This document shows, piece by piece, positions 35,581 through 39,124 of a stretch of 64,000 nt of DNA (position 1 is the stretch's first letter; every line of letters starts with the position of its first letter). The notes below the pieces were generated by a model, which made no database searches, had not been told where the DNA came from, and saw only the letters and a list, made by a program, of their open reading frames with translations. This DNA is from Octopus sinensis (taxonomy: Eukaryota). Location of the stretch: positions 97,712,001 through 97,776,000 of the forward strand of contig NC_042997.1 in NCBI RefSeq assembly GCF_006345805.1, read 5' to 3'. The translations under genes and the position numbers were made by a program.

Positions 35581-36240
35581 AATCCTTTCTACTATAGGCA
35601 CAAGACCGGAAATTGGAGGAAGAGGATAGTGGATTACATTGTCCCCAGTACTCGGCTGGTACTTTTTTCATCGACTCCGAGAGGATAAAAGACAAAGTCA
35701 ACCTCAGCGGAATTTGAACTCAGAACGTAAAGACGGACGAAGCATTTCGCCAGGTATGCTAACGATTCTGCCAGCTTGCCGCTTTCCATCGCTTCAATAA
35801 TAGCCACTGTTCCTCGGTGTTAGCTGGTCTCATACCTCTGTGAATCAACCCTCACCCATTCGTCTTTTCACTTCTTGTTACACCTGATGCGTGAAAACCC
35901 TTCGGCCTCGTATTAACCATATCCCCAGTCTTTCCTCCCGAGAAACATCGGCTCTCTGTAACCTTCTCCCTGCTCGTGTCTTTCCTGCAAACCGGTCTCG
36001 GAGGGCCTGCAAAGGTTATGTTGTTCTTTCTTCTAGACCCCACCCCACCAAAAAAAAACAACAAAAATACAAGATGTAAAATATATAGTTTGTGGAAAAT
36101 ATTTTTCCAAAAGTTTTTTAAAAAATGATTAAATATTTTTTAGAATTTAAATTCTTAAATAAAAAAAATTTAAAACCTGTGATTTAAAAAAAATGAAAAA
36201 ATTAATTGCTTTATTAAAAATATAAATAAATCGAAAACAT

Positions 36241-36400
36241 AGACGCAGGAGTGGCTGTTTGGTAAGTAGCTTGCTTACCAACCACATGGTTCCGGCTTCA
36301 GTCTCACTGCGTGGCACCTTGGGCAAGTGTTTTCTACTATAGCCTCGGGCCGACCAAAGCCTTCTGCGTAGATTTGGTAGACGGAAACTGAGAGAAGCCC
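36241..36400 (+). mobile_element. SINE family A, 5' portion
   Basis: Head homology. Confidence 0.85.
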
Positions 36401-36497
36401 TGACTGGAAAAAAGAAAGAATAAACGAATACTACACAAAGAAAAAATCGCTTCGAAAATATGTGCAGGCGTGGCTGTATGGTAAGAAGCTTGCTTCC

Positions 36498-38182
36498 GGT
36501 TTATGGTTGTTCAGTTGCATTGTTGGATTTGTTTGGTACACACGTGCTTTTTTTTGTTTGTTTTTTTTTTGGCTGTCCTGGTGGAACGACATTTTGCCTC
36601 TTATGTGATGGAGGGGCGTCGAGCAAGAAGTTGGGGGAAGTTGAAGTATTCTTTCCTCGAATGTGATTCGTCTGAGGAGGAATTAGTTGAATACTTAACC
36701 AAGATGGACAAGGAAATGGGGAAGAGGAATTATGCAGCGGCGGCTTGAGAAAAAAATGAAGAAATCAATCTGGAAGCATTGAGTGAGTTCAAGGAAATAC
36801 TTGAAAGGAAGGGGAACGATATGAAGGTGTTCCCCCCACAAAAATATTAAAGGACAAAGAAGAAAGGACGATTGTCTATAGAATCTACGCCACAGCAACA
36901 AGGAAAATTGAAGGAGTGTCGGAGGCACAGGTGGAAAAGGCATTGAGGTTAGTCTGGCAGGAGATAGCATACCTTGGCAGGGGACGAAAATATGGAACGG
37001 TGGAGGTGCAGTTTAACGAGATAGCAACTGCCAGACTGTACTCGGCCACACCGCTGAAGACAGACAAGGTGGTGCTTCTACCCGTGTACCATGGGAGACG
37101 TACTTCCAGGGTTCGGGTGGACGACATACCACCAGAAGTGAATGTGGCTTGGCTGGTGGCTGCCACACTGCTGGGTATGGAGGAGAAGGTAGTGATCCTG
37201 CAGGCCACCAGAACGCCCCAAATGAATTGGAGAGGACAAACCCTTGAAGTGATGGTACAGGTCGCGAAGGAAGACCTGGAAAAGATGGTGGAAAATATCT
37301 TAGTGGGTGAAACAACTTTGAAAGATTGGAGGGAAGAATTCCGCGATGTTATAAGTGTGGCCTGAAGGGCCACATTAGAGCGGAATGTCCTTCACCAAAG
37401 GAAAAGGCTGGGGAGAGTGAAAGATTGGTAAGTGCTCCACAGCCTGTGGAGGAAAATGACATGACCATCGAAGAAGAAGAGGCAAATGACAGCTGGGAGA
37501 TAGCAGAGAAGAAAAGAAAAAGAAGAAAGAGGACACATGTGGTAAAGAATGACCCACAACCCACACCCACCCGGCCACCACCCCCACCTACTCTCTACAG
37601 ACACCAACCCAGTCTGACAAAAAAAAAAAACAACTGCAAACACATAGGAGCCTCAAAGTTACCCACCCCGCCCTGTAAGGAAAATATGTTTTGATGTATA
37701 ATGGACAGAATAAGGAACTGGATAACGAGGTAAATTCGTGGGACGGAATAGTCAAGGTGGATATAGCAGGTGTAAGGGGTCTGCCCAAGAACGATATTTG
37801 TGTTCTGACGGACCTGGTTAACCTGTGGAAAATGCATGAGTATATGGAAAACTATGACTGTGAGTGGTGATACAAAAAAATTGACACCAGCACAATGCCG
37901 GAAAGAATAAGGTATATGGACATTTTAAAGAATATAATATAGACATTTTGAAAAAAGATATGGATTAATTGCAAAATGTAAATAATTGTATTCTAAAGTT
38001 GGTTGCAATTGGAAATTCAAATGGTGTTGCAAGGGGTTCAATGAAGTCGCCCAGAGGTGGGGCCGAAAGACATTATTTCATCTTTTATTATATAATTTCC
38101 TTCATTCCATTCGTTTTTTTTTTGTCCCCACCTTCTGCTGTCCCCTCTGTGTAGGGCCTTTATGGCAAATTTTCATGAAATA
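36498..38182 (+). mobile_element. ORF1-only non-LTR retroposon (HAL1/Tx1-like)
   Basis: TSD AAGAAGCTTGCTT at 36483-36495 and 38183-38195; 3' end ..CATGAAATAAA; single gag-like ORF, no RT or endonuclease. Confidence 0.8.
36608..37870 (+). pseudogene. ORF1/gag-like zinc-knuckle protein, frameshifted
   Basis: RIPRCYKCGLKGHIRAECP (CX2CX4HX4C) preceded by YHGRRTSRVRVDDIPPEV and followed by W..A.KKRKRRKR; pieces in several frames. Confidence 0.75.
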
Positions 38183-38894
38183 AAGAAGCTTGCTTTCTAA
38201 TCACATGGTTCCGTGTTCAGTCCCACTGCGTGGCATCCTCGGGCCGCCCAAAGCCTTGTGAGTGGATTTGATAGACGGAAACTGAAAGAAGACCGTCGCG
38301 TGTGTGTGTTTCCAGCCACCGTTTGAAAACCAGTATTCGTTTGTTTACGTCTCCATTAGCTAGCGGCTTGACAAAAGAGGCCGATAGAGTAAGTAACAGG
38401 TTAAAAAAAAACAAAAAACAAATACTGCGATCGATTCATTCGACTAAAATATTTTCAAGGTGGTGCTGCAGCATGGCTGTAGTCTAATGACTGAAACAAT
38501 CAATAGGAGAGTGGAGAAAATATTTAGCGCCTTACATTCTGAGTTCAAATTTCGACGGGGTCGACTTCGTCTTTTACTCTTTCGGGATTGACAAAATAAA
38601 TACCAGCTGAGTACTGAAGTCGATGTAATCGACTGTCACTCTCCCCACAAAATTTCAGGCCTCGTGCCAATAATAGAAAGACTAGTTAGCTATAGCTTTA
38701 TCAGATAGCATTGTAAGTTTCTCTATTACAGGTTTCGTTCTCACGTGACTACTTCACGTCAAATGAGCATGATTTACACTTGAACTGTCTCTTTAGTCAC
38801 ACCCAGAGAGCTTCAACATTTTCTATGCTTACCTAAGTAACATGGTTCAGAGAGTCGCAATAATGATTTATAGTACAGTTCTATGGATGTAACC

Positions 38895-39124
38895 TATTTC
38901 TTTACTACCCACAAGGGGCTAAACACAGAGAGGACAAACAAGGACAGACAAACGGATTAAGTCGATTATATCGACCCCAGTACGTAACTGGTACTTATTT
39001 AATCGACCCCGAAAGGATGAAAGGCAAAGTCGACCTCGGCGGAATTTGAACTCAGAACGTAACGGCAGACGAAATACGGCTACGCATTTCGCCCGGCGTG
39101 CTAACATTTCTGCCAGTTCGCCAC
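38895..39124 (-). mobile_element. SINE family B
   Basis: Reverse complement of 4705-4923. Confidence 0.9.

Follow-up and report, generated by a model that had tools for sequence, protein, structure and literature searches.

An ORF1-only retroposon family with a preferred site in the head of a SINE of Octopus sinensis, likely copied by a Tx1-like LINE

There is a 1,685-bp insert in the head of a SINE at positions 36498-38182 of the window, the whole 64,000-nucleotide stretch of Octopus sinensis DNA that was analysed. Direct reading shows it bracketed by 15-bp target-site duplications. It is a decayed copy of an ORF1-only zinc-knuckle family that uses one 15-bp SINE site and was likely copied in trans by the endonuclease and reverse transcriptase of a Tx1-like LINE that uses the same site. 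The probability of this reading is put at roughly 85%. The insert is a HAL1/HeT-A-like passenger on a Tx1-like LINE that targets a SINE. ORF1-only retroposons are known from few systems (HAL1 and HeT-A). The features are as follows.

36462..36482, plus strand: 5' part of the target SINE, 83% identical to the intact SINE copy at 36236-36276
36471-36481, plus strand: A-box-like motif TGGCTGTATGG of the target SINE, read directly
36483..36497, plus strand: 5' copy of the 15-bp target-site duplication, read directly
36498..38182, plus strand: ORF1-only retroposon, a member of the ~1.7-kb family, 1,685 bp, bounded by the family ends
36498..36607, plus strand: 5' UTR with T-runs, from sequence reading; putative start codon at 36608
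36608..37970, plus strand: decayed ORF1 of ~450 codons, end approximate, from frames and sister-copy alignment
36832..37335, plus strand: conserved ORF1 core, from ORF1 alignments
37347..37388, plus strand: CX2CX4HX4C zinc knuckle, PF00098 (Pfam zf-CCHC), E 4.9e-5
37509..37532, plus strand: basic patch, from the translated frame
38139..38182, plus strand: 3' tail in common with the Tx1-like LINE that targets the SINE; 45 nt at 82% identity (E 1.5e-5)
38155-38167, plus strand: tail hairpin with a 4-bp stem and 5-nt loop, outer pair broken in the window copy
38183..38197, plus strand: 3' copy of the target-site duplication, 14/15 identical (13 bp exact)
38198..38298 (end approximate), plus strand: 3' part of the target SINE, with a ~26-bp internal deletion
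38215-38224, plus strand: B-box-like motif of the target SINE, read directly

The earlier note had described much of this layout. The unit of ~1.69 kb does interrupt the SINE just after the A-box region, the duplication that it reported (13 bp exact, 15 with one mismatch) is present, and the knuckle and the basic patch were both located. Neither an endonuclease nor a reverse transcriptase was found in the insert by Pfam domain search, as had been claimed. The AATAAA ending was right in part. The hexamer is present (38179-38184), but its second half belongs to the target duplication. By sequence reading, the 3' end of the insert carries no poly(A) tail. No long terminal direct or inverted repeats were found around the insert by repeat comparison. 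Elsewhere in the window, a 41-nt inverted pair that is 83% complementary (38594-38634 and 38960-39000) probably represents two inverted copies of another short repeat.

Two stops (36746-36748 and 37868-37870) interrupt ORF1 in the window copy, and the frame shifts near 36835-36850, 37320-37335, and 37620-37680. Among 26 aligned rows, 20 other copies read through the stop at 37868-37870, one shares it, and four could not be placed. Sister copies that keep the frame terminate about 30 codons later, so ORF1 measures ~1.36 kb and the 3' UTR ~210 bp. By this alignment the stop reads as premature in the window copy. The ~1.26-kb ORF and ~310-bp 3' UTR of the earlier note are corrected accordingly, with the end moved from 37870 to ~37970. 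The part of the core before the knuckle is predicted to have a ferredoxin-like fold of the RRM/ACT class. A structure model of a sister-copy ORF1 has a pLDDT of 68.7, and fold searches gave a best Z of 8.9, to ferredoxin-like domains, with no match at E 0.001 or better. An RRM is plausible. No match to a mammalian-type L1 ORF1p was found for the ORF1 of the window family in Pfam or PDB.

The family is represented many times in the 2.72-Gb genome. A DNA search gave 836 candidates; the 40 that were scored gave 64 matches, and the long ones are 67-84% identical. A search with the ORF1 protein gave at least 150 scored matches. The length from duplication to duplication is 1,667-1,826 bp in 17 of the 21 loci checked. 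Such a search for ~1.7-kb copies with the same ends had been proposed earlier, and the fixed ends and lack of an adjoining ORF2 identify a family and not a lone deleted copy of a LINE or LTR element. The family is old, since the median identity among 82 ORF cores is 76%. No intact copy of the window subfamily was found in the first 30 loci.

The proposed targeting of the SINE was borne out when flanks were tabulated. Sixty loci were taken from DNA and protein searches in which the flanks were absent from the query, and up to four mismatches were allowed in the 15-mer. Loci found with a query containing 18 bp of SINE were left out of these counts. The 15-bp SINE site lies directly after the tail in 32 of 40 tail matches and directly before the head in 31 of 40 heads. 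Past the 15-mer, those 32 continue as SINE (21), as a next element (7), or as other sequence (4). The remaining 8 tails and 9 heads (of 40 each) lie off the site, some of them at degenerate sites. By eye, two of the 8 tails are likely false motif matches, one has lost its end, and the rest, about five, are real insertions elsewhere. The targeting is a preference, because real off-site insertions exist. The pattern is far beyond chance, because many unlinked copies have the identical two junctions.

Occupants of this SINE site come from three or more ORF1-only lineages and from several LINE families, and mixed tandem arrays are present. The exact 5'-junction pattern has 93 matches in the genome, of which 90 were classified. 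These include 45 closed ORF1-only inserts, 8 SINE deletion variants, and 2 closed inserts with ORF2; in the others there is ORF1 with no end found (19), no end but ORF2 nearby (5), or no resolution (11). The 45 closed ORF1-only inserts belong to a 2.0-2.4-kb lineage (33), the ~1.7-kb family (7), and a 1.45-kb lineage (4), with one labelled otherwise. Exact 3' junctions number 953 genome-wide (reversed-pattern control, 0). Forty of these, all of the younger SINE variant and on contig C1, were inspected; 19 have a 2.0-kb-type ORF1 and 11 have ORF2 directly upstream. The other 10 have no ORF match, and three of these are truncated inserts of 51-148 bp with their own duplication.

Most often the site is filled by the 2.0-2.4-kb lineage (L161-L237, L291-L329), whose 5' part comes in many variants; its ORF1 is distant, at about 25-30% identity. 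The 1.45-kb lineage (L110:6840-8304 on the minus strand, L141-L160) occupies the same SINE site and is younger. L110 has an open 444-codon frame, and the top 1.45-kb copies are 93-95% identical to it. There are also ORF1 relatives without ORF2 that have other tails or other targets (L343, L351, L355, L358, L364), and the ends of L343 and L364 resemble the head of a second short repeat. Chimeras in which the 5' part and the 3' end come from different families were seen at L096, L185, and L354. These are a possible route for tail swapping.

ORF1 of the ~1.7-kb family was under purifying selection while the family spread. Variants were counted against the commonest codon of each column in 82 copies and 174 codons, and those in at least three copies were taken as shared. 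There are 168 synonymous and 173 nonsynonymous shared changes compared to 72 and 289 private ones (Fisher p 2e-16), and the transversion omega is 0.33 for shared and 0.95 for private changes. Since omega is low in shared and not in private changes, master copies needed ORF1, and copies decayed after insertion. The dN/dS check suggested by the earlier note is thereby answered. Transversion values are quoted because the transition omega of private changes exceeds 1, which is read as an artefact of saturated synonymous sites. Transversion omega is 0.17 shared and 0.56 private in the 1.45-kb lineage (24 copies), and 0.19 and 0.92 in the 2.0-2.4-kb lineage (55 copies). As a control, the same test on the ORF1 of the young LINE described next was uninformative (p 0.31).

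A candidate helper uses the same site. With an old ORF2-bearing insert as query, a young LINE family was found, and 21 of 21 young copies end at the SINE site when examined by eye. Their median identity is 98.9%, and full-length copies are ~5.43 kb with the site duplication on both sides. One copy, L280, is 5,432 bp and encodes an ORF1 of 488 aa and an ORF2 of 1,137 aa, both in open frames, although a short part of the ORF2 frame seems to be locally shifted. The ORF2 domains are Exo_endo_phos (APE), RVT_1, and a C-terminal zf-RVT. Its closest PDB match is human L1 ORF2p (E 2.5e-65), which places it in the L1 group. The name Tx1-like is taken from architecture and targeting; database searches matched no named Tx1 reference. 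Inserts that are 5'-truncated and have their own duplication were found at the site (L279, L299, L301, L303, L324). In contigs of four presumed-RNA runs, 25-30 of 30 bins of the young helper are covered, but among the pieces listed none crosses the SINE junction by 31 letters, and this was given no weight. No RNA data set was listed as containing the window copy, which counts neither for nor against its expression.

An older helper LINE family was seen at L176, L235, and L284. It carries the same SINE-site variant as the ~1.7-kb family, ~1.7-kb copies are followed in tandem by its 5' end (L028, L074, L346), and the chimera L185 joins the 5' 750 bp of the ~1.7-kb family to the last ~430 bp of the old LINE (87%). 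For these reasons the older LINE is the likeliest mover of the window copy and likely the closest partner of its subfamily. A second young Tx1-like family, L101-L109, was ruled out as the partner by its other tail and other targets (its ORF1 is 47% identical). It has an open ORF1 and a 1,131-aa ORF2, several other repeated targets with duplications of ~15-17 bp, and a related tail hairpin. No reverse transcriptase was found within 7 kb upstream at 10 of 10 loci, eight of which share only the last ~148 bp.

The earlier note had supposed a Tx1/L1 partner and advised a search with the 3' end. At the DNA level, only the last ~45 nt of the window element and the young helper are alike (82%, E 1.5e-5), and the 3' UTR of the ~1.7-kb family has nothing else in common with the same-site LINEs. 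Pairing in the tail hairpin was counted in 157 junctions, which are related sequences. The outer pair is T-A in 97, G-C in 45, and C-G in 2, or 144 Watson-Crick pairs compared to a mean of 81 and a maximum of 101 in shuffles. The third pair is C-G in 132 and T-A in 10 (142; shuffle maximum 136); these two pairs covary. Pairs 2 and 4 fall within the shuffles (135, maximum 141; 135, maximum 137). Folding predicts the hairpin in the majority of tails, though some lack it, among them the tail of the window copy.

From the common tail and the common site, and with LINE biology as established elsewhere, we infer mobilisation in trans. The element RNA would be packaged by its own ORF1 protein, and the helper ORF2 protein would bind the ~45-nt tail hairpin. 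ORF2 would nick the SINE between the A and B boxes, staggering the cuts by 15 nt, and the element RNA would be copied through target-primed reverse transcription. The duplication would rebuild the site, so that further elements could stack head to tail. The A box would be split from the B box, and that SINE copy would be silenced. The Pol III promoter of the SINE is an unlikely source of the element RNA, because insertion leaves the B box at a distance of 1.7 kb, and the 5' junction is followed by T-runs. The element had been proposed as a protein-coding parasite of a SINE; the SINE is its landing site, but the parasitised party would be the enzymes of the LINE.

HAL1 elements of mammals are non-autonomous, encode only ORF1p, and form several separate lineages, according to the available text of PMC5753468. 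The octopus elements are likewise ORF1-only non-LTR retroposons, probably dependent on an L1-group LINE and present in several separate lineages. The ~1.7-kb family has the fixed ends, the independent retroposition (duplications, truncation), and the selected ORF1 by which HAL1 is recognised. It differs from HAL1 in its Tx1-type ORF1 with a CCHC knuckle, its site specificity, its lack of poly(A), and its structured common tail, and its ORF1 does not group with that of its partner. The term HAL1-like, used by the earlier note, therefore holds for the way of working and probably not for descent from the partner, because this ORF1 does not look like a close derivative of the partner ORF1 (38% identity, separate clade in quick trees).

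HeT-A, as presented in the available parts of PMC5537684 and PMC6581046, is also ORF1(Gag)-only and without pol, is targeted, and forms mixed head-to-tail arrays with RT donors that it outnumbers. HeT-A belongs to the jockey clade, inserts at chromosome ends, and serves its host. In contrast, the ~1.7-kb family has an internal site in a dispersed SINE, a 15-bp duplication, an L1-group partner, and no evident host function. Tx1 elements that target another transposon are described in the accessible portion of PMC4494074, namely Tx1-Mar/SINEU in crocodilians and Tx1L in Tx1D in Xenopus, with non-autonomous riders that use the LINE's own target and are often in tandem. That text gives DNA transposons, LTR elements, snRNA genes, and microsatellites as targets, whereas here it is a SINE head. 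Its riders are SINEs without coding capacity; the octopus ones encode a selected ORF1. In LINE/SINE pairs of the stringent type, a common 3' tail with a compensating stem-loop is an accepted sign of the mover, as far as the available text of PMC3747384 goes. Here the passenger is 1.5-2.4 kb and protein-coding, and the tail type is common to several unrelated ORF1 lineages.

In Octopus vulgaris, 13 recently active L1-Tx1 families have been counted, and targeting is not mentioned in the available part of that source (PMC13282606). A literature search that did not extend to Repbase or subscription journals, so that earlier annotation is possible, found no SINE-targeting Tx1 and no cephalopod ORF1-only element. 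The SINE head is added to the targets of Tx1-like LINEs, in a three-layer nest of SINE, LINE, and half-LINE, and each insertion would disable one SINE promoter. Three divergent lineages with selected ORF1s at one helper site bear on why passengers keep ORF1. Young near-intact copies (L110, L280) make the use of ORF1 in cis and ORF2 in trans directly testable. A 1,137-aa enzyme, a 15-bp site, and a 45-nt RNA tag form a compact model for targeted insertion.

The elements could instead be classical half-LINEs: an autonomous Tx1 that had this ORF1 would have lost its ORF2, and that parent, unsampled or decayed, would have moved them. This is unlikely, although HAL1 arose in this manner several times, to judge from the available text of PMC5753468. 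The ORF1 is clearly homologous to Tx1-like ORF1s, at 47% identity between the window copy and L101-L109 and 38% between it and the young helper. In a quick, unrooted ORF1 tree made without bootstrap, the ~1.7-kb family stands as a clade by itself (support 99), distinct from the autonomous ORF1s and from the 1.45-kb and the distant 2.0-2.4-kb lineages. The ORF1s of both same-site LINE families sit in another clade, which argues against the half-LINE explanation, as does a 3' UTR unlike theirs except for the tail. The old autonomous L366 does join the ORF1-only group close to its base, but the support is weak (82).

The absence of ORF2 also counts against a half-LINE origin. The inspection covered 70 of 150 ORF1 matches near the top of the list and 10 long-frame matches, and no endonuclease was found directly after any ORF1 of the ~1.7-kb family. 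Among 40 further ORF1 matches, an adjoining endonuclease was present only at L366 and L369, both outside the family clade, and at none of the 11 loci that fall within it. None was found after any ORF1 of the 15-row family clade, and none directly follows an ORF1 in the wider clade of 35 rows. One member of that wider clade, L354, has a C-terminal piece of ORF2 downstream. At L004/L240, L185, L190, and L354 the ORF2 lies further downstream, and these loci are composites with a separate LINE.

In quick trees, unrooted and without bootstrap, the ~1.7-kb family is placed amid ORF1 relatives whose tail type and targets are different, which suggests long-lived passengers that change helpers. A wider reading can be offered tentatively, with odds somewhat short of even. 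ORF1-only retroposons may form an old, self-standing guild with its own selected ORF1, not offshoots of their helpers, in which helper and target change by swapping the ~45-nt hairpin tail. At least three lineages would have converged on the SINE-head LINE, outnumbered it there, and tracked SINE turnover. The sister lineages with the other tail type and targets, and the tail-swap chimeras, bear on this reading.

The target SINE is short and very abundant, with A-box-like and B-box-like motifs and a simple-repeat tail; about 16 copies lie in the window. An uninterrupted copy at 36239-36400, 60 bp upstream and in the same orientation, shows the empty state. Exact empty sites (31-nt) number 31,301 genome-wide (reversed-pattern control, 0), and their ratio to junctions is only rough because the patterns differ in length. 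The variant of the SINE site that is duplicated differs with age: older families (L002-L091) have one, and younger families (L271-L281) have another, which is the dominant variant among the first 100 exact empty sites listed. Published octopus SINE families include OK, OR1, and OR2 in the available text of PMC4758252.

A tRNA gene might be the true or ancestral target of the LINE, with the SINE hit because its head is similar. This is improbable, and it is compatible with passengers moved by a same-site Tx1-like LINE. The site does lie between the A-box-like and B-box-like motifs, and U2 snRNA genes, like other small sequences present in many copies, are targets of Tx1 families (PMC4494074, available portion). 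However, on-site copies run on into the SINE body and not into a tRNA 3' end, and the duplicated site varies with the SINE variant of the older or younger families. ARAGORN (default and relaxed thresholds) and three Rfam scans made no tRNA call on the SINE heads of the window.

Passive multiplication of a single insertion, with the SINE or by segmental duplication and without targeting, is highly improbable. A few pairs do resemble duplications (L010/L014, L228/L229). The flanks beyond the SINE differ between family copies, which lie on many contigs, interstitially and inside SINEs, and the several ORF1-only lineages and LINE families at the site point the same way. Passive copying is also contradicted by 5'-truncated inserts at the site, including a ~1.7-kb copy (L055), by the tandem arrays, and by off-site copies with their own target duplications (L022, L358).

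A gag-only LTR element or DNA-transposon derivative can be dismissed: a PDB profile search with the ORF1 core matched knuckles alone, many of them retroviral nucleocapsids, but there are no long terminal repeats, the 15-bp duplication and 5'-truncated copies do not fit, and the core can be aligned over all of its 190 residues with the knuckle-type ORF1 of APE-RT LINEs. The nearest named protein relatives are in Octopus bimaculoides and Argonauta hians. The Octopus bimaculoides gene model P0006 combines a C2H2 zinc-finger array with the N-terminal half of an ORF1 of the 1.45-kb type; this fusion could be an artefact of annotation or an insertion that was exonised.
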